This document shows positions 1 through 5,929 of a DNA stretch of 5,929 nt, one piece after another (the stretch's first letter is position 1; each line of letters begins with the position of its first letter). The position numbers and the translations under genes are program-made. A model generated the notes under the pieces. That model saw only the letters and a list, made by a program, of their open reading frames with translations. It was not told the origin of the DNA and did not search any database. The DNA is from a virus. The DNA lies in IMG/VR virus record IMGVR_UViG_3300045988_012347, positions 1-5,929 of that record; one strand, 5' to 3'.

Positions 1-119
1 ATGTTTTTCGTCCGCTTTGCAGTCTGCGTGAAACGTCGCTGGTCGCCACGGCCTGCGCCGCTACGATGTGCCATTGTGTCACCTCCTTTTATCCTTTGTC
101 TGCATTGTATCAAAAAAAC
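1..119. repeat. Terminal direct repeat, left copy (circular-genome assembly overlap)
   Basis: Nt 1-119 match nt 5811-5929 base for base, implying a circular unit of 5810 nt. On the minus strand this copy carries the first 74 nt (1-74) of the small basic ORF whose complete copy is at 5768-5884. It also carries that ORF's SD and the -10 box of promoter P1. Confidence 0.95.
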
Positions 120-132
120 TCCCGGCTGTCAA
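104..132 (-). promoter_or_regulatory. Sigma70/SigA-type promoter P1 for the main (structural/lysis) operon
   Basis: The minus strand reads TTGACA (127-132), a 17-nt spacer, TGa (110-112) and TACAAT (104-109). That is a perfect -35, optimal spacing, an extended -10 TG and a 5/6 -10. It lies about 20 nt upstream of the AAAGGAGGTGA SD and the ATG (74, equivalent to 5884) of the basic ORF. Confidence 0.7.
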
Positions 133-140
133 CCGGGAGT
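112..140 (-). terminator. Rho-independent terminator ending the 60-aa ORF cassette and the genome-length transcript
   Basis: Minus strand: ACTCCCGG-TTGACAG-CCGGGAGT, a perfect 8-bp GC-rich stem (118-125/133-140) with a 7-nt loop. It runs straight into seven T residues (the last stem T plus 112-117). It sits 11 nt downstream of the TAA stop at 151-153. Confidence 0.85.
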
Positions 141-150
141 TTGCTTTTGT

Positions 151-333
151 TTACGCGAAAATTTCCGTTTTGTCGATTCTGTGCAGCTCTACAGAATCGA
201 TGCCTCTCAAGTTTGCAAGCTTACTGCAAAAGTCTCTTGCTTCTTTGGTTTTTAAGCATCTGATTTCATATGTGCTTGTGCAGTCATCATGTTTTGTGAT
301 GACGAGGAACTTGTATTTCTTTTGTTCTGCCAT
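151..333 (-). CDS. Hypothetical 60-aa protein (orphan accessory gene with its own promoter and terminator)
   Basis: Track ORF 151-342 begins at a GTG inside the SD. The real start is most likely ATG 333-331, preceded by AAAGGAAGGTGA with a spacer of about 5-7 nt. Product: MAEQKKYKFLVITKHDDCTSTYEIRCLKTKEARDFCSKLANLRGIDSVELHRIDKTEIFA. It has no recognisable motif and no TM segment. It is flanked by promoter P2 and a strong terminator. Confidence 0.7.
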   Translation of the reverse strand: MAEQKKYKFLVITKHDDCTSTYEIRCLKTKEARDFCSKLANLRGIDSVELHRIDKTEIFA

Positions 334-360
334 TTCTATCACCTTCCTTTTTGTGATTAT

Positions 361-389
361 ATTCTACCATTTTTCATTGAAAAAGTCAA
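361..389 (-). promoter_or_regulatory. Sigma70/SigA-type promoter P2 driving the 60-aa ORF
   Basis: The minus strand reads TTGACT (384-389), a 17-nt spacer, TGg (367-369) and TAGAAT (361-366). An A/T-rich UP-like tract (390-420) lies upstream. The SD starts about 11 nt and the ATG about 28 nt downstream of the -10. Confidence 0.75.
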
Positions 390-429
390 TGTTTTTTTGA
401 AAAAAGTTTAAATAAATCTTGCATTGATG

Positions 430-471
430 GCCGTCCGTTCGGCTCTGGTGAGCCGACGAAGAGAGGACGGC
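430..471 (-). other. Long imperfect hairpin immediately downstream of the VP4 stop codon
   Basis: The outer stem GCCGTCC (430-436)/GGACGGC (465-471) has 7 bp. The inner stem CGTTCGGCTC (437-445)/GAGCCGACG (450-458) has 9 bp with a TGGT loop. There is a 6-nt asymmetric bulge at 459-464. The hairpin begins 13 nt after the TAG at 484-486. No adjacent T-run follows on the minus strand, so this is not a canonical terminator. Confidence 0.5.
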
Positions 472-483
472 GCGACGTTTAGG

Positions 484-1488
484 CTAGATTCCGGTCCGTT
501 CCTTTATTGGCTCACGCCATTTTTGTTTCTGCTTGTCTTTCTCCTTCTGGATTTCGAGGTATGTCGAGTACAATACACTCGTGTTTTGCTCAAGGTTTAC
601 GAGACTTAGCACCGCGTTTCTCCTTCTTTTGGCTCTTACCTCTCTCAGCTCGTCAGAATGGGCCTTGAAATAGCTTTCAGCGTCTTGGTTGGTATCCTTA
701 TCGAGTAGCTTGTCAAAGTACCTCGGTGGCTTTTTCTGCCGCCCTCCAGCGCACGTTATGTTATCGGTTTCAAGTATTTCGTTCATGTGCTCTTTAAGGT
801 ACTTCTCCCCGATGCCTTTTGACATGATTCTAAACTCTGGTTCTCTGCCTTGCATCCAGTATTTTGCATTCTGCTCTGCGCCGATGGCTTTCTTGTTGAC
901 GTACTGCGCTACATACGCGTATGAACCCGGTGCTGCTGGTGAGAAGTCTACAAAGCCTTTTCCCCAGAGGTTTGTTAGCCACTCGCTCTTGAAGTACGAG
1001 TTGCCTTTCTGGTTTTTGTACCACTGTCCATCCTCCGGCTTTAATCCAAAGAAAATTCCGTGATAGTGCGGTCGCTTTGTCCTGTCTCCGTATTCGCCCG
1101 CAATAAAGTACTTTATCGGCTTCTTGTATGCCTTTCTTAGACGTTTTAGAAATAGCTGTACGTCTCTTTTACTTACTGTCTGAGATTGTATACTCTGGTA
1201 GCCTTTTATGATTTCTCCATAAGGTACGTTTTCTTCGTCATAGGTCATCGTTACAAAAATCACGTCTTCCCAGTCTTTTGCTTCAAGCTCGATTCTCGTT
1301 GCCCACTGGTCGGCCATTTGTTTTCTGCAATACTCACACTGCCCACAAGGTAATAACGCGAGGCTTCCTTTTTTGACGCCGTCCATGATGGTTATTTCCA
1401 TGCCCTGCTTCTTTAGGTTTCTTAAACTTCCCCACATTCGCGGCTTGTTCAAGTTCATCTGAAAAACATTCGGATTTGTACATGGCAT
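484..1488 (-). CDS. VP4: Rolling-circle replication initiator protein (Microviridae VP4 / gpA-like HUH endonuclease)
   Basis: 334 aa. The N-terminus MPCTNP is typical of gokushovirus VP4. A CxxCxxC cluster (PCGQCEYCR) is present. RCR motif 1 is FVTMTYD. The HUH motif is PHYHGIFFG (H codons at 1066-1068 and 1060-1062). The double-tyrosine motif AYVAQYVNKK (Y codons at 913-915 and 901-903) is nearly identical to the phiX174 gpA active-site segment YVAKYVNKK. Confidence 0.93.
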   Translation of the reverse strand: MPCTNPNVFQMNLNKPRMWGSLRNLKKQGMEITIMDGVKKGSLALLPCGQCEYCRKQMADQWATRIELEAKDWEDVIFVTMTYDEENVPYGEIIKGYQSIQSQTVSKRDVQLFLKRLRKAYKKPIKYFIAGEYGDRTKRPHYHGIFFGLKPEDGQWYKNQKGNSYFKSEWLTNLWGKGFVDFSPAAPGSYAYVAQYVNKKAIGAEQNAKYWMQGREPEFRIMSKGIGEKYLKEHMNEILETDNITCAGGRQKKPPRYFDKLLDKDTNQDAESYFKAHSDELREVRAKRRRNAVLSLVNLEQNTSVLYSTYLEIQKEKDKQKQKWREPIKERTGI

Positions 1489-1540
1489 ATTATCTGGCCC
1501 AAGCTTACTTGTCTATCTTGGGCCAGTTGACACCTCCTTT
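1489..1540 (-). promoter_or_regulatory. VP4 translation-initiation region: strong SD separated from the AUG by a perfect 10-bp hairpin
   Basis: Minus strand: AAAGGAGGTG (1531-1540) TCAA [CTGGCCCAAG-13 nt loop-CTTGGGCCAG] (1494-1526) ATAAT ATG (1488). The linear SD-AUG distance is 42 nt, or 9 nt if the helix is closed. An in-frame TAG inside the loop rules out an upstream start. Confidence 0.6.
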
Positions 1541-1550
1541 CACTCTAAGT

Positions 1551-1738
1551 TGCGTGTGCGTGCGTGTTTCACGCGCGCGCGCGCAGATGCTGTTTACCTT
1601 AGCTTCGTCTCCCCAGCGACAGCCCCCGCGCTAGGGGGCGCCGTCGCAAGGGGGCCGCAAACTTGTTTTGCGGCCCCTGTTTCTACAGAGCTTTTTTGTT
1701 CTGATACTCTTCTTTTGGTTCCCCTGTGCTGGGGAACC
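1551..1738. other. GC-rich cluster of four stable hairpins in the large noncoding region (candidate ssDNA origin, packaging element or structured RNA)
   Basis: H1 (1551-1585) pairs two alternating Pu/Py tracts, (TG/CG)n and (CG)6, into 16 pairs including 3 T.G, with a TTT loop. H2 (1616-1647) is GCGAC..GCCCCC-GCGCTA-GGGGGC..GTCGC. H3 (1651-1677) is GGGGCCGCAAA/TTTGCGGCCCC, 11 bp with a 5-nt loop. H4 (1717-1738) is GGTTCCCC/GGGGAACC, 8 bp with a 6-nt loop. A 9-mer ACCTTAGCT is repeated at 1596-1604 and 1736-1744. No ORF with an SD is present. Confidence 0.6.
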
Positions 1739-1815
1739 TTAGCTCTGCGCGGAAGGGTTTTGTTTTGCTCTACTTGCTTTATTATATAACTTGTTGTAGT
1801 CGTAGTAGTAGTAGC

Positions 1816-1980
1816 GTGGAAACTGTTGAAAACACTAAATTATAGCGTTGATACGCATAATTATCGCCCCTTTTTCTGTTGAAAGTTTTGTTGAAAACTT
1901 GTTTAAATGTTGAAAACTTGTTTTTGTCTTCAACTATGGTTGTTTTTCCTGTTGAAAACTCTGTGGAGAATGTTGAAAAC
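1816..1980. repeat. Iteron-like array of the 10-mer TGTTGAAAAC
   Basis: Perfect copies lie at 1824-1833, 1889-1898, 1908-1917, 1950-1959 and 1971-1980. A variant TGTTGAAAGT lies at 1877-1886. An inverted 8/9 copy (GTCTTCAAC) lies at 1926-1934. Two copies extend to an identical 16-mer TGTTGAAAACTTGTTT (1889-1904, 1908-1923). The outermost copies extend to GTGGA-N3-TGTTGAAAAC (1816-1833, 1963-1980). The array is AT-rich, noncoding and sits between the VP2 stop and the GC-rich hairpins. Confidence 0.85.
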
Positions 1981-2000
1981 TGAAGTTTTCCACAATTTGT

Positions 2001-2846
2001 TTAATTGCCTGTGTAGCCTCTCATTGGGCTTGTGTTCGGCATCAGCGGAACATTTTTCAGGTGGTCGCTCCACTTTCTTGCTCCTTCGTCAACCGTTTTT
2101 CTCACGTTGTTGCCTATTTCTTTGCCTGTGTCTAGGAGTTTGTCTCCGAGTTCGTTGGCCATATAGCTATAGTCTGCCACTTGTTTTGCGCTTGACTGTG
2201 CAAGGCTGCTTGCGGCTTCTTTCCAGCTCTTTGCCGAGTGGTATTGCTTCGCGCTCGTGGCTTTCTTTGCCAGCTCTAAATACCGGTTTGCTAGCTCTGC
2301 CGTGTTGTTGCCATACTCGTACATTGCTGAGACAGACGCTGCTTGTGCGCTCTGCTGGTTATATCTCTGTGTTCCGATACTTGCTGATGCTCCTGACGGT
2401 GTTGCTGTTGCTCCGTTGTTTGCCGCCAGAATTGGATTTATGCCGGCTGCTATCATGTCTTTTACGGTGTCTTGATACGCTGTGCCTCGCATTTCCTTTT
2501 CAAAGGCTCTCTCTGCCGCTGCTTCGGCGCTGTTGTACTTTTTTGCGCTTGCTTGGCTTCCCGCGTTCATGATGTTACTGAGCATCGACGACATAAAGCT
2601 CATCATGTTCGCATTGGTTACGCTTCCCTGATTGCTGTACGTTCCGAAGCCCGTCGGCGTTCCGATTTGCGTAGAACCGATTTGCTGCGGAGCCGTCAGA
2701 CTGCCTGTGGTTGTCTCGTTTCCGTCGTTGTACTCTTGTCCGCCTCTGTCTGTTTTCGTTGCGCTGGAACTGTTTGAATTTGTGATGACATTGCTTAACA
2801 GGCTAAGTCCCTGCATCACAAAAGGCATCCATGATAAAAGACTCAT
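2001..2846 (-). CDS. VP2: Minor capsid / DNA pilot protein (Microviridae VP2)
   Basis: 281 aa. It has a hydrophobic N-terminus, and the rest is Ala/Ser/Gln/Asn/Gly/Thr-rich and low in complexity. It contains the conserved gokushovirus VP2 segment AYQDTVKDMIAAGINPILA (the AG-[LI]-NP-x-L motif). Its position directly after VP1 fits the family gene order. The start is ATG 2846-2844. The SD AAGGAG (2877-2882) lies upstream of the intervening hairpin. Confidence 0.8.
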   Translation of the reverse strand: MSLLSWMPFVMQGLSLLSNVITNSNSSSATKTDRGGQEYNDGNETTTGSLTAPQQIGSTQIGTPTGFGTYSNQGSVTNANMMSFMSSMLSNIMNAGSQASAKKYNSAEAAAERAFEKEMRGTAYQDTVKDMIAAGINPILAANNGATATPSGASASIGTQRYNQQSAQAASVSAMYEYGNNTAELANRYLELAKKATSAKQYHSAKSWKEAASSLAQSSAKQVADYSYMANELGDKLLDTGKEIGNNVRKTVDEGARKWSDHLKNVPLMPNTSPMRGYTGN

Positions 2847-2874
2847 TCAAAAATAGCCGGGACTTTGCCCGGCT
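2847..2874 (-). terminator. Intrinsic terminator/attenuator between VP1 and VP2
   Basis: Minus strand: AGCCGGG-CAAAGT-CCCGGCT, a perfect 7-bp stem (2855-2861/2868-2874) with a 6-nt loop, followed by ATTTTTGA (2847-2854) and then the VP2 ATG. It lies 10 nt after the VP1 TAA stop. Confidence 0.7.
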
Positions 2875-2884
2875 TTCTCCTTTC

Positions 2885-4543
2885 TTAAATTCTTTCGATT
2901 CCCGGAATGCTGTAGATGGGCATTTCCCGGAACCATGTTTCGTTGTACCAGAAGTCACAAAGGAACTGGTGCGCCTTTGCGCTTGTTACCGCAATCGTGC
3001 GGTCAATGTTTTCGCGTCCTTCCTGAATCCACTCCGCCGACAGTGTCGGCAGAGTGTCGTAATCGTCCGCATAGTGCCATGCATCCAGAGACTTTTTGTA
3101 GTTTGAACGCATTTCGCCGGTCACATAGGAAGGTTTGTACCTGTAGTCGGCCCAGCACTCCTGATACCCGAAGATTTCGTCATCTTTTTCCGTACCCTGT
3201 GCGAAGATTTCGCGGTTATATACCGGCTGTTCTCCGAGTGCCGCTAGCCGCGGGTCGTAGTATGTGAATCTTCCTTTTCGCGTCCATTTGGTTGTGAGTC
3301 CCTGCTGGTAGCTGTGCTCCACTCGTACCACTGCCAGACCGATGATATACCCGTACTCAGTTGCCGCGTAGTCCACCATCTGTTTGCTACAGGTCGTCAG
3401 ACTGTATGCCGCCGTGTTGCCCAGTGCCTGACCGGTCTGTTCGTCCGTCTGGCTTGTCTGGATGACCTGATTGACATTGATAGCGATTCTCTGCCCGCCG
3501 ATGTACTCCGGGATTTGCAGGCGGCTGTCCGGGCTTGTCACTCCCCATGTGCCGGAAAGGAACTCGCGGTAGCGCGTGCCATTTCTGGCATCGGCCTCGA
3601 AGATGTGTTGCAATGCGATGGCCTGTCTCAGGTCGTTGATGGTTATTGCGGTTACGCTGCTGAGGTCTGCCCCCAGGTATGCCGATGCTGAGTTTGTGTC
3701 GTCATTTTCATCTTTTCCAGATACCAGTGTGACACTGTTTTTGTAGTCTTCTCCGTTGTTTCCGCTGTTGTACATCGTCGGGTTGCTGTAATTGGTACTG
3801 ATAAGTTCTATTGTTTGTTTGAACTCTTGGGTTAAGTTTCTGTCGTCGTACATCTTTACTTTTGCAGGGCCGCCCAGCGGCAGGCTGATTTCCTCTGCAT
3901 TTTTCAACGGCGAAGGTAGGCAGGATGTGAAGTAGTCGTGGAACTTACCAGCTCTTGCCGGTTTCATCGCGTACAGCGTTGCTTCGTTGGTGTTGGTCGT
4001 CTTGTCGATGGCGTTTGCGCTTGACGTCTCTTTGCTGGCGTCTGCGTTCGTGCCGCTGTCATCCGACTTTTTGTAGCCCAGCATTAACGGCGCTTCGAGG
4101 TTTTCATCTCGAAACCACTCGTTGTAAATCATCGCATAGGCCCGCGCCGGGAGTGCGTTTACCTTCAGTGCGTTGGTCACTTCGGTCGGCAATCCGAAAT
4201 AGTCGCCAATACTGCCGTTTGCGAGTCCGCTTGTGCCGCCGATTGTGCAGGTTGGAGTGGAATACTCCGTCTTTTCTGCCCAGTAATCGGTGTTGTTCTC
4301 GCCGAACATATTTTCAAAGTGTTCCCACAAGAGACGTGACGGTACAAAGAAAAAGTATGTGTCCATGTAGCAGTTATCCATGATGGGATAGATAGGCGTA
4401 CTCATACGGATAAGGCCGTTCAGCTGTACTCTCGCGGTATCACCCGGGAGCACTTCGTCCATATAGATAGGCACCAACTCGCCTTCGTTGATGGTCGTCA
4501 ACAGCTGGTGTCCTCGGTCAAATTTAGACCGTGGTCTCTGCAT
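2885..4543 (-). CDS. VP1: Major capsid protein (Microviridae VP1 / F-like)
   Basis: 552 aa and the largest ORF. The N-terminal segment SKFDRGHQLLTTINEGELVPIYMDEVLPGDT matches the conserved Microviridae capsid N-terminus (F-D-x-S/G-H..T...G.L.P....EVLPGDT). Length is typical for gokushovirus-like VP1. Confidence 0.95.
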   Translation of the reverse strand: MQRPRSKFDRGHQLLTTINEGELVPIYMDEVLPGDTARVQLNGLIRMSTPIYPIMDNCYMDTYFFFVPSRLLWEHFENMFGENNTDYWAEKTEYSTPTCTIGGTSGLANGSIGDYFGLPTEVTNALKVNALPARAYAMIYNEWFRDENLEAPLMLGYKKSDDSGTNADASKETSSANAIDKTTNTNEATLYAMKPARAGKFHDYFTSCLPSPLKNAEEISLPLGGPAKVKMYDDRNLTQEFKQTIELISTNYSNPTMYNSGNNGEDYKNSVTLVSGKDENDDTNSASAYLGADLSSVTAITINDLRQAIALQHIFEADARNGTRYREFLSGTWGVTSPDSRLQIPEYIGGQRIAINVNQVIQTSQTDEQTGQALGNTAAYSLTTCSKQMVDYAATEYGYIIGLAVVRVEHSYQQGLTTKWTRKGRFTYYDPRLAALGEQPVYNREIFAQGTEKDDEIFGYQECWADYRYKPSYVTGEMRSNYKKSLDAWHYADDYDTLPTLSAEWIQEGRENIDRTIAVTSAKAHQFLCDFWYNETWFREMPIYSIPGIERI

Positions 4544-4568
4544 TCGCGGTACTTGCGCGAAGTGCGAT

Positions 4569-4982
4569 TCACTGTTCCGGTTTATTGTCGTTCACCTCTT
4601 CCTTTTTTTCCTCCTGCTTCGGCGGTTCGGTCTTCTGCTCCTTCTTCAGCTGTTCCAGCGTTTCCGCTGCCGCCTGTGCTTTCTCGTGCATTGTTACCAC
4701 GTCCTTAGGCAGGTTTTCCAACGGCGTCCCCTCGGTGTATACCATGCTCTTTGCCTTGATGCTTATATCGCCAGCTTCCAGCCGTGCGATTGCGCTTGCG
4801 AGGTCGTAGCCCTCACCGGCCCGCTGGATTTTCTCGTATACGTTCTCGGGCGGCTGTTCGATGTACTCGGTTGTGCCGTTCGCCCGCTTCACTGCTTTCC
4901 ACGTCGGTGCCATTTCTGAGCCTGCCTTGTTCGGCACTCTCTCGGTCGGCATCCCGAAGAACTTTACGTTAGGATTTGTCAT
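4569..4982 (-). CDS. VP3: Internal scaffolding protein (Microviridae VP3-like)
   Basis: The track ORF starts at TTG 4988. ATG 4982-4980 is preceded by AAAGGAG with a 7-nt spacer, giving 137 aa (MTNPNVKFF...). The segment NVYEKIQRAGEGYDLASAIARLEAGDISI resembles the gokushovirus VP3 core (Y-E-x-IQ...D-[IL]..I..R...GD). The C-terminal tail is charged. The position immediately upstream of VP1 fits the family order. Confidence 0.7.
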   Translation of the reverse strand: MTNPNVKFFGMPTERVPNKAGSEMAPTWKAVKRANGTTEYIEQPPENVYEKIQRAGEGYDLASAIARLEAGDISIKAKSMVYTEGTPLENLPKDVVTMHEKAQAAAETLEQLKKEQKTEPPKQEEKKEEVNDNKPEQ

Positions 4983-5226
4983 TTCCAAACTCCTTTTTCA
5001 GGTCAACCAGTTTGCACAGCTGTTTCGGCTCTGCCCCGTACATCTCGCCGGTTTCGCTGTTGAACTCGCCCAGCTCTACGAGGCTGATGTCTTCGATTTC
5101 CTGCAACGTGCCTTCGTCTGCCTTCCACTTTGCCGTGCGGATTGCCTGCGCCCGGTTCTGCTGAAGGAACGGATTGCTGTAGCCATTGGTCACGCTGTCA
5201 TGAAAACTGTAAAACGTGTATTTCAT
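4969..5226 (-). CDS. Conserved small Microviridae nonstructural protein (ORF5-like family; function unknown)
   Basis: The track ORF starts at GTG 5235 inside the SD. ATG 5226-5224 follows AAGGTGGA with a 5-nt spacer, giving 85 aa (MKYTFYSFHDSVTNGYSNPFLQQNRAQAIRTAK...ISLVELGEFNSETGEMYG). The pattern [FY]S-x-xD-S/K...PF.....A.R.F ... L.ELGEFD..TGE matches, from memory, a family common in gokushovirus-type genomes. It forms an ATGA start/stop overlap with the peptidase gene and a 14-nt overlap with VP3. Confidence 0.65.
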   Translation of the reverse strand: MKYTFYSFHDSVTNGYSNPFLQQNRAQAIRTAKWKADEGTLQEIEDISLVELGEFNSETGEMYGAEPKQLCKLVDLKKEFGNDKS

Positions 5227-5615
5227 TTTTTCCACCTTGCCTTTTTTTCTCGTGTGTCGATATGTGTAAAGGTCCAGTAGCTCCCGATGCCGTATTTGTT
5301 CTGGTATTTATTTTTCAGGTACTGTTGCACCTTACTCGCCGGAACTCCTTTTACTCGAATATCTGCCGCCGTGCCTTTTGTGTGCTGTGAGTTTTTCACA
5401 CCGCCGATTTTCGCGTTGTATTCCGGTGTCCTGTAGCCACTGGTGATTATTACAGGTGTGTTAAAGTGTTCTCTTACATCTTCCAGCACTTTTACCAGCT
5501 CTGTGTCGATGAGGATTTTGTCACACCTGCCGTCTTTTTGTGCAAATTCTTTGATTCTGAAGTGTGTGCTCACTCGTTGGGCGCCCTGATGAAATAGGCT
5601 GTATTCATTTAGCAC
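5223..5615 (-). CDS. Zinc D-Ala-D-Ala carboxypeptidase-fold cell-wall hydrolase (Peptidase_M15 family, putative endolysin)
   Basis: 130 aa. The start is GTG 5615-5613, with the SD GAGGA 6 nt upstream. Motifs are STHFRIKEF, ITSGYRTPEYN, SQHTKGTAADI (H78 codon 5382-5384, D85 codon 5361-5363) and FTHIDTR (H118 codon 5262-5264). This is the H-x6-D...H zinc triad and the SGYR/SxHxxGxAxD signature of the M15 (VanX/Peptidase_M15_3-like) fold. No signal peptide or TM segment is present. Confidence 0.88.
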   Translation of the reverse strand: MLNEYSLFHQGAQRVSTHFRIKEFAQKDGRCDKILIDTELVKVLEDVREHFNTPVIITSGYRTPEYNAKIGGVKNSQHTKGTAADIRVKGVPASKVQQYLKNKYQNKYGIGSYWTFTHIDTREKKARWKK

Positions 5616-5733
5616 TGTTTTCCTCGCTTTCGTCGTTGTCTGCGTCCTCTGCGTCCTTCACGACTGCATGATAGATTTTATCTACCATCTCCAGAATTTT
5701 CAGCAGAGTGTTCATGGTTTCCTTAAAGTCCAT
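5605..5733 (-). CDS. Hypothetical 42-aa acidic protein
   Basis: The track ORF 5605-5892 (95 aa) starts at a GTG in another gene's SD and runs across the basic ORF in a different frame. The internal ATG 5733-5731 has a strong SD (GAAGGAAGGTGA, about 5-nt spacer). Product: MDFKETMNTLLKILEMVDKIYHAVVKDAEDADNDESEENSAK, a predicted helix followed by an acidic tail. Its stop overlaps the peptidase start by 11 nt. Confidence 0.55.
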   Translation of the reverse strand: MDFKETMNTLLKILEMVDKIYHAVVKDAEDADNDESEENSAK

Positions 5734-5767
5734 TGTGTCACCTTCCTTCTTTGTTCCATGTGGAACA

Positions 5768-5884
5768 TTACAGCCGGATGCCGCCCCGGCTGACCTTCGG
5801 TCGGACGTTGATGTTTTTCGTCCGCTTTGCAGTCTGCGTGAAACGTCGCTGGTCGCCACGGCCTGCGCCGCTACGATGTGCCAT
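5768..5884 (-). CDS. 38-aa highly basic protein, putative DNA-binding/packaging protein (phiX174 J / gokushovirus ORF8 analogue)
   Basis: This ORF is not in the track because it is too short. ATG 5884-5882 is preceded by AAAGGAGGTGA with a 5-nt spacer, and the TAA stop is at 5770-5768. Product: MAHRSGAGRGDQRRFTQTAKRTKNINVRPKVSRGGIRL, with 8 R, 3 K and 1 D. It is the first gene after promoter P1. Its 5' part is duplicated at 1-74 by the terminal overlap. Confidence 0.7.
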   Translation of the reverse strand: MAHRSGAGRGDQRRFTQTAKRTKNINVRPKVSRGGIRL

Positions 5885-5929
5885 TGTGTCACCTCCTTTT
5901 ATCCTTTGTCTGCATTGTATCAAAAAAAC
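5811..5929. repeat. Terminal direct repeat, right copy (circular-genome assembly overlap)
   Basis: Identical to nt 1-119. Confidence 0.95.

Follow-up and report, generated by a model that had tools for sequence, protein, structure and literature searches.

A small optional gene cassette probably occupies a hypervariable slot that separates Rep from the J-like gene in a human-gut gokushovirus

We analysed a 5,929-nucleotide (nt) stretch of viral DNA (IMG/VR record IMGVR_UViG_3300045988_012347, positions 1 to 5,929; the whole stretch is called the window below), and in it a short cassette at positions 112-389. The cassette, whose positions are read on the minus strand, encodes ORF60, an open reading frame (ORF) of 60 amino acids (aa). 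We consider it probable that this is a genuine optional accessory-gene cassette in a hypervariable slot between Rep (VP4) and J38, the gene of a 38-aa J-like protein, and we propose a mechanism for its expression. The virus is a gokushovirus of the human gut; its closest GenBank records are the human-gut gokushoviruses KX513864 (89% identity, 89% query coverage) and KT264784 (80%). A sequence-only reading had picked out a promoter, an UP-like tract, a Shine-Dalgarno site, a 60-aa ORF and a terminator in this region, and each of them was found where it had been placed, on the minus strand (Table 1).

ORF60 is a real gene under purifying selection. In a search of 5.8 billion proteins, homologues fell into 16 clusters (counted at 90% identity) with 59-97% identity to ORF60. 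Fifteen of the 16 were exactly 60 aa long, and all were encoded on short metagenomic contigs no larger than a microvirus genome. An exhaustive profile search of 1.84 billion representatives returned only ten proteins: a marginal match of 892 aa and nine short relatives of microvirus type. What it contributed beyond the clusters was a handful of divergent 59-60-aa relatives and some N-terminally chimeric or truncated forms. The earlier description of ORF60 as an orphan is right in that it has no annotated family and wrong as to relatives, which make up 16 or more clusters at 90% identity in addition to the divergent subfamilies. We collected 25 cassette DNAs of this family (family A) from IMG/VR and metagenome contigs and calculated Nei-Gojobori ratios of nonsynonymous to synonymous substitution rates (dN/dS, omega) on 17 of them. 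Median omega was 0.14 in the window-type group, where many pairs were saturated at synonymous sites with dN of about 0.2, and 0.07 in a second subfamily (A_2). The sense frame alone was open in all relatives, so the conserved coding frame on which the first reading depended is present. The ORF listing also offered a 63-aa version with a GTG start; this start falls inside the Shine-Dalgarno site, and every homologue begins MAEQK.

One homologue, 95% identical to ORF60, is an observation apart. It lies on a contig that exceeds unit genome length (CYGL01001112.1, 7,064 nt; L060 among our relatives, which are given L-numbers) and is frameshifted in a T-run, so that its last residue gives way to a 22-aa extension running through the hairpin. 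Either a sequencing error in the homopolymer or a genuine variant could explain this.

The slot, taken from the Rep stop to the J38 start, was compared in 57 related genomes. It is 409 nt long in the window. Twelve of the 57 slots contain no intact ORF. Nine of these measure 112-124 nt (L001, L002, L012, L017-L020, L053 and L055, with KX513864 and KT264784 included) and have a single promoter (AAAAACCTTGACTTTTG...TATAAT) directly before the J38 Shine-Dalgarno site; L009, L051 and L052 retain 206-270 nt. An M15 peptidase gene is the only occupant of another 12 slots. Family A, comprising ORF60 and two divergent subfamilies (MKQKEYKFIAHITH...LYRIDKTEIFT and MKEYKFLVRVYF...LYRIDQTFEF), was found in 11, and family B in 13. 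The members of family B are unrelated-looking proteins of ~60 aa that start MKHKYELR and follow the pattern MKHKYELRAWKDDD...EPKxAKxRAKxYA...GIYSLYK...YFTE; family B counted 574 clusters (E <=1) against 16 for family A. One of five other small-ORF families (50-82 aa) was present in 11 slots, in two of them alongside A or B and in nine with neither. These are the slots of L021, L025, L029-L032, L034, L039, L044, L045 and L054, with proteins such as MKGYDDYTGLF...RYYAKKYAK, MTLKSYRIEMTNTKTGKKE, MRKPRLSKRTI... and ...QRINQL.... Across the 57 genomes, at least seven small-ORF families and M15 peptidases alternate at the fixed position between Rep and J38.

Absence extends to close relatives: KX513864, the nearest GenBank record, lacks ORF60 at 89% nucleotide identity genome-wide, KT264784 lacks it likewise, and in all nine close relatives besides KX513864 are without it. 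Some slots also hold traces of loss. L051 retains the last nine or so codons and the hairpin only, and L009 looks like the product of a deletion between two TTGACA boxes; the remnants in L051, L009 and L060 indicate that deletions happen. Judged by this distribution, ORF60 is an optional accessory gene and dispensable; in other genomes different proteins of ~60 aa take its place behind the same promoter and leader. The presence, absence and variability that the sequence-only reading had proposed to look for in this slot are all seen, with empty, M15, A, B and other versions.

Exchange of the slot content was apparent at two distances. The window and L008 have Rep proteins that are 93% identical, and between the Rep stop and the ATG of the small ORF their DNA is 88% identical over 150 nt; beyond the ATG the two are unrelated, one encoding family A and the other family B. 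This is a clean allelic replacement. In L004 and L061, Rep is 31% identical to that of the window, yet a 310-nt stretch of promoter and ORF shows 79% nucleotide identity, and nowhere else in the genomes is conservation as high. Such a shared cassette at low Rep identity points to horizontal exchange between divergent microviruses. The composition of the cassette also differs from that of its surroundings: GC is 0.38 (0.39 in ORF60) against 0.49 for the genome, as measured on a sample of 180-280 nt, and third-position GC in ORF60 is 0.47 against 0.54-0.69 in the structural genes. Purifying selection, absence in close relatives, replacement, sharing and lower GC together bear out the non-core, moron-type accessory character that had been ascribed to this gene.

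The signals around ORF60 were analysed next to its coding sequence. We scanned the whole 5,810-nt circular genome with a strict promoter criterion (>=10/12 hexamer matches and an extended -10 TG) and found exactly two sites, P1 and P2, both on the coding strand and flanking ORF60. Dinucleotide shuffles of the genome contained a mean of 0.027 such sites, and none of the 300 had two. A generic promoter scan gave no overall enrichment (5 sites against 4.1 expected). Nearly all cassettes of the window, A_2 and family B types (~30) keep the layout of P1 (-35 TTGAC[TA], 17-nt spacing, TGnTAnAAT), and 26-28 nt separate the end of the -10 box from the ATG in them. The leader ATAATCACAGAAAGGAAGGTG is conserved across cassettes.

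At the other end of the gene, the terminator is fused to P2. The -35 box of P2 forms the loop of the terminator hairpin, and its spacer consists of the 3' stem arm and the T-run. Downstream of P2, past the circular junction, come AAAGGAGGTG and then the J38 ORF. The folding energy of the window hairpin is -20.1 kcal/mol (RNAfold), with a range of -13 to -24 kcal/mol across cassettes. The same design, with a stem, a TTGAC[AG] loop, a complementary stem, a T-run and a box of TAcAAT/TAtAAT type, is shared by nine distinct sequences, family B cassettes included (window, L004, L007, L008, L059, L060, L065, L066 and L071). The -35 box in the loop is kept while the stems vary among three to four types (CTCCCGG, CTCCTGG, GGGGGC, AGAGGG). 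In the alignment of the nine sequences, 94% of the cells were paired and six of the 12 pairs had changed on both sides in a compensatory manner. None of 500 shuffles reached the observed covariation score, and slid registers paired at 39-73%. With few independent lineages behind it, this covariation supports a conserved hairpin and is not proof of termination. Other designs exist: the long GGCAGGC...GCCTGCC hairpin of L003-type genomes has no -35 box in its loop and a U-tract that is broken (TTTTATATTT), and L010, L057 and the like have a plain TTGACA-17-TGGTAAAAT promoter instead.

Two further arrangements were noted in such relatives. Where the hairpin has no -35 box in its loop (L003, L006, L013, L014, L016, L063 and L064), the end of the ORF and its stop read ATTGACAAAACAGAGATTTTTGCATAAAAT, which corresponds to TTGACA-17-TAAAAT; the corresponding codons of the window lineage (151-180) read ATCGAC...TAAACA. 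The conserved C-terminus RIDKTEIFA may also be constrained as DNA through an embedded promoter, in a pattern that is confounded by phylogeny. In L010, L015, L052, L054 and L057, a promoter (TTGACAATATCACCTTCTTATGGTAAAATAACCATAAGGAGGTG) lies 90 nt upstream of J38, and part of its spacer and -10 box (CACCTTCTTATGG) is complementary to CCATAAGGAGGTG, which holds the J38 Shine-Dalgarno site. Transcripts that read through from the promoter further upstream could sequester that site in these five genomes; transcripts started at the promoter itself could not.

We propose the following mechanism for the window. Once the single-stranded DNA has been converted into the double-stranded replicative form, host RNA polymerase of the sigma-70 type would start at P1, which is near-consensus and conserved, and would make a monocistronic mRNA of ~240 nt. 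Transcription would end at the hairpin and U7, the hairpin being backed by the covariation, and P2 would restart it for the operon of the J-like protein, M15, VP5, VP3, VP1 and VP2. Because the -35 box lies in the loop and the U-tract in the spacer of P2, the small gene would be insulated without silencing of the structural genes. The mRNA would be translated into a 60-aa protein of beta-beta-alpha-beta topology.

This topology comes from the AF2 model of ORF60 (pLDDT 84), with strands at residues 6-15, 20-28 and 45-53, a helix at 29-40 and a less confident C-terminal tail. The family B model (pLDDT 91) has its elements in the same order. Families A and B are alike in length, position, promoter and predicted topology. 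Alignment of the two profiles by hhalign gave a probability of 39%, which rose to 63% with larger alignments (E = 7e-5, 43 columns), and hmmsearch of one family against the other gave at most 16 bits. We regard this similarity as suggestive only.

Database searches returned no function for ORF60. There was no match in Pfam, NCBIfam or PADLOC; the sole NCBIfam hit scored 13 bits against a cut-off of 117, and PADLOC models defence, not anti-defence, proteins. PHROGs gave only a weak match to a family of unknown function (E = 0.009), and a profile search against PDB sequences yielded nothing beyond a single match to protein H10 at E = 0.2. Foldseek found no significant match in the PDB for either the ORF60 or the family B model. 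The top weak matches of ORF60 were p56 inhibitors of uracil-DNA glycosylase (UDG) from the phi29 family (E 0.23-0.9, TM 0.37-0.54), and RB69 Dmd (TM 0.68) and YkzG (TM 0.43-0.48) stood lower in the list. One good match was obtained in BFVD, an unnamed 56-aa viral protein that is probably a member of the family, and p56-type proteins were among the weak hits there. Neither sequence nor fold searches overturned the earlier statement that the protein has no recognised family motif.

Inspection of the ORF60 sequence revealed no hydrophobic stretch, and its isoelectric point (pI) is 8.5 (6.5-9.7 in the family). The small core proteins (J/VP8, VP5 and E-type) were considered as identities for ORF60 and rejected: there was no Pfam hit and no hydrophobic stretch, and J38 and VP5 are encoded elsewhere. 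We commit only to a class for the product, that of a small, soluble, single-domain protein predicted to be made from a strong constitutive promoter.

The context of the gene invites a proposal on its role. Allele turnover, presence/absence variation and horizontal sharing typify the conflict genes of phage accessory regions, and because the slot shows these features we suggest, tentatively and with rather less than even confidence, that ORF60 is a small protein that inhibits a host or competitor target by stoichiometric binding, in counter-defence, host takeover or exclusion of rivals. Two reports describe conflict genes as the main content of variable accessory regions in phages (bioRxiv 10.1101/2023.04.06.535777, 10.1101/2024.10.15.618418). 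A broader idea, which we hold to be more doubtful, is that the Rep-J slot is a plug-and-play expression site built of a conserved strong promoter and leader and of either the dual terminator/promoter or an equivalent restart element, and that its mini-proteins make up an unrecognised arsenal for counter-defence or exclusion in a virus group credited with hardly any accessory genes and little gene exchange. If so, unrelated mini-genes of family A, the much commoner family B and at least five further families could enter or leave the slot, or pass from one distant microvirus to another, while the structural operon stays undisturbed.

Several points weigh against our main reading of an optional cassette with a conflict role. 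Our sample of 57 genomes is small and was partly selected for the ORF60 gene. The sequence and fold searches yield no function, and the conflict role is argued from context alone. The activity of P1, P2 and the terminator is inferred from sequence. The -35 box of P1 and the region upstream of it have their homologue in the one promoter that serves the late operon of the empty-slot genomes; the promoter was therefore not clearly imported with the gene, and the cassette may have captured it. Finally, L005, L067-L070 and the A_3 subfamily have no terminator, and the gene is directly followed by the M15 peptidase gene, with which it would be co-transcribed. Autonomy is therefore a feature of the window lineage and not of the gene family. 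The self-contained transcription unit that had been read from the sequence stands as far as the signals of this lineage go; it does not extend to the several relatives in which the gene is the first cistron before M15.

These relatives also favour a different account, in which the late operon begins with ORF60 as its first cistron, the hairpin serves as a leaky attenuator or mRNA stabiliser, and downstream expression comes mostly from read-through of P1. L032, L035, L037 and L058 join L005 and L067-L070 in carrying a homologue with no hairpin and the M15 gene next to it, and the broken U-tract and plain loop of the L003-type hairpin fit as well. Weak terminators set gene dosage in phiX174. In the window lineage, however, a hairpin of -20 kcal/mol is followed by an uninterrupted T7, and a promoter with 11/12 matches and an extended -10 box is built into it, which would be needless if read-through sufficed; moreover, the loop -35 box stays invariant while the stems covary. 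We consider this account unlikely. It is distinctly less probable that ORF60 is no conflict gene and serves the phage's own cycle, either by modulating lysis together with the M15 endolysin, whose partner or timer it would be, or by modulating Rep and DNA synthesis. The slot adjoins Rep, and in many relatives the genes of families A and B lie immediately upstream of the M15 gene, the usual position of a holin or lysis regulator. Against this, ORF60 contains no hydrophobic segment and its predicted fold is that of a soluble mini-domain. M15 without a small ORF is common, as in the 12 M15-only slots and in the 12 empty-slot genomes, L001 included, that have M15 downstream, and in the window a terminator and two genes separate ORF60 from M15.

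The fold comparison raised more specific candidates, namely that ORF60 is a p56-like UDG inhibitor or a different known phage inhibitor of small beta-beta-alpha-beta fold, such as a Dmd-type antitoxin or an RNA-polymerase binder of the Gp2/epsilon type, and that it protects single-stranded DNA replication or blocks a host toxin. The p56 chains that head the Foldseek list, the presence of RB69 Dmd and YkzG in it and the weak p56-type hits in the viral library all lean this way, and inhibition of UDG would plausibly be useful to a single-stranded DNA phage. None of the p56, Dmd or YkzG matches was significant, however, the profile search of PDB sequences was empty, and the family B model, despite its higher confidence, gave no p56 or Dmd matches. 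A p56-type DNA mimic was also rejected on charge, as the pI range of the family is not that of an acidic mimic; p56 itself is acidic. These candidates are very improbable. Least credible of all, and already largely refuted, is a spurious ORF in regulatory non-coding DNA or at an artefactual contig end. The ORF is short and is unannotated in the GenBank relatives, the cassette adjoins a 119-nt terminal repeat, and a 110-aa antisense ORF spans the region. Against this stand omega values of 0.07-0.14 with saturated dS and the conservation of length and frame in more than 25 loci. The antisense frame is not conserved in relatives, Rfam has no family in the cassette region, and the junction of cassette and J38 that spans the contig ends was found intact inside contigs L059, L060 and L066.

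Table 1. Positions of the cassette elements and of the other features in the window
Feature	Position	Strand	Details
A/T-rich UP-like tract	391-410	-	TAAACTTTTTTCAAAAAAAC; upstream of P1; similar tract before the -35 box in relatives
Promoter P1	361-389	-	-35 TTGACT (389-384), 17-nt spacer, extended -10 TGgTAGAAT (369-361)
Shine-Dalgarno site	~339-348	-	AGGAAGGTGA; ~6 nt before the ATG
ORF60, 60-aa accessory protein	151-333	-	MAEQKKYKF...HRIDKTEIFA; stop included; ATG 333-331, TAA 153-151
Intrinsic terminator	112-142	-	hairpin 142-116, T7 118-112; core stem ACTCCCGG (140-133) with CCGGGAGT (125-118)
Promoter P2	104-132	-	-35 TTGACA (132-127), 17-nt spacer, extended -10 TGaTACAAT (112-104); 11/12 matches plus TG
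Terminal direct repeat	1-119	.	identical to 5811-5929; assembly overlap of the circular genome
Rep/VP4	484-1488	-	upstream border of the variable slot; Pfam PF23343, E = 4e-19
VP2	2001-2846	-	
VP1	2885-4543	-	
VP3-like scaffold protein	4569-4988	-	
VP5	4969-5235	-	PF20577
M15 peptidase	5223-5615	-	
42-aa acidic ORF	5605-5733	-	downstream of P2, between J38 and M15 peptidase
J38, 38-aa Arg-rich J/VP8-like protein	5768-5884	-	MAHRSGAGRGDQRRF...; first gene after P2; 5' part repeated at 1-74 (terminal overlap)

All recognisable genes of the window, the ORF60 cassette included, lie on the minus strand. Since positions 1-119 are identical to 5811-5929, the genome is a circle of 5,810 nt with a 119-nt assembly overlap. 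P2 is followed by J38, the 42-aa ORF, the M15 peptidase, VP5, VP3, VP1 and VP2 in this order. J38 is 87-100% identical among the Rep-related relatives and forms the downstream border of the variable slot. Both J38 and the 42-aa ORF are preceded by a strong Shine-Dalgarno site, and both are unannotated in KX513864 and KT264784; the protein of the 42-aa ORF has an amphipathic N-terminus and an acidic tail. M15 peptidase genes occur at two positions: they precede J38 in a clade whose Rep is 82% identical (L021-L050) and follow the 42-aa ORF in the window clade. The two versions are ~40% identical in amino acids, which suggests independent acquisition or relocation. No integrase is among the listed ORFs of the window. 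A scan of genome contigs found only a free 5.7-kb phage contig that had been binned into a metagenome-assembled genome and a 513-nt fragment, and no integrated copy.

Two regions near Rep were also noted. Between the VP2 stop and the Rep start, ~510 nt (1489-2000) are non-coding and contain a GC-rich hairpin of alternating purines and pyrimidines at 1550-1586 (TTGCGTGTGCGTGCGTGTTTCACGCGCGCGCGCGCAG) and repeated motifs of the TGTTGAAAAC type at 1816-1980. Parts of this region (~1780-1916) have inverted matches in L004, L005 and L071, where they immediately precede the cassettes. The region is a possible origin or iteron site. Directly after the Rep stop, a long imperfect hairpin is present at 434-478 on the minus strand (GCGCCGTCCTCTCTTCGTCGGCTCACCAGAGCCGAACGGACGGCC). 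It is 88% conserved in L008, and KX513864 has a different GC-rich palindrome instead; the hairpin has no T-run and so is no obvious terminator.

Few phages of the human gut are as abundant as the microviruses. The cassette indicates that the DNA downstream of Rep is a defined hotspot for the gain, loss and replacement of small genes and for their sharing by distant lineages, and this wider hotspot is the part of most specialist interest. It yields a short, testable list of 60-aa proteins that may act in conflict with the host or with rival phages. A terminator whose loop is the next -35 box would also be a compact natural insulator-restart element and a possible design part, if its activity is confirmed.

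Among known systems, the cassette invites comparison with the morons of lambdoid and other double-stranded DNA phages (the concept of Hendrix and Juhala), which are autonomous insertions of promoter, gene and terminator between conserved genes. Like a moron, it adds a gene at a point where close relatives have two core genes side by side, and at the sequence level this gene comes with a near-consensus promoter in front and an intrinsic terminator behind. Its GC is lower than in the DNA around it, some relatives have it and others do not, and it is shared across lineages. It differs in its setting, a 5.8-kb single-stranded DNA microvirus with no sign of lysogeny, to which prophage expression for the benefit of a lysogen does not apply. 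It differs also in its signals, as the upstream promoter resembles the resident late promoter and the terminator carries a replacement promoter.

The accessory hotspots of double-stranded DNA phages, as far as the accessible parts of the reports describe them, resemble the slot in their fixed position between core genes (here Rep and the J-like gene), in the alternation of many unrelated small-ORF families and in fast allele turnover with each allele under purifying selection (bioRxiv 10.1101/2023.04.06.535777, 10.1101/2024.10.15.618418). They differ in that counter-defence and exclusion genes have been described there, whereas for the genes of our slot such a role is only proposed, and in scale, a gokushovirus genome being an order of magnitude smaller. 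For microviruses themselves, the parts of the literature at hand describe a very limited accessory repertoire with little exchange beyond the genus, the accessory genes being peptidases, methyltransferases and some small proteins of ~65 aa and unknown function (mBio 2022, PMC9239249; PMC7062461). A ~60-aa accessory protein in a gokushovirus, a slot that also hosts M15 peptidases, and local recombination between divergent microviruses, as in the peptidase region of PMC9239249, agree with these accounts. The same parts of PMC9239249 and PMC7062461 contain no description that we could find of a swappable cassette downstream of Rep delimited by promoter and terminator, or of the present families. 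The superinfection-exclusion determinant known from them is a defensive hypervariable region inside the pilot protein VP2 (PMC9239249, citing a PNAS 2021 paper; PMC7062461); that determinant is a segment of VP2, whereas ORF60 is a separate gene.

At the protein level, phi29 p56, a UDG inhibitor, and Dmd of T4 and RB69, an antitoxin, are like ORF60 in having 50-62 aa and, by prediction, three strands and one helix. ORF60 differs from both in that it is not acidic, shows no sequence similarity to them and gives fold matches that are not significant, and family B lacks these hits.

The expression signals, finally, recall phiX174, which uses promoters PA, PB and PD and the leaky terminators TJ, TF, TG and TH. 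In both phages, promoters of the host sigma-70 type and intrinsic terminators would set dosage on a single coding strand, although no sequence relation connects the phiX174 elements with P1, P2 or the terminator. In the coupled promoter-terminator elements described for bacteria (bioRxiv 10.64898/2026.08.19.745784), as in the window, termination and initiation signals physically overlap. Compared with either system as so described, the element in the window is set apart by a -35 box that is itself the terminator loop, by a U-tract placed in the promoter spacer and by apparent conservation through compensatory changes in the stem.

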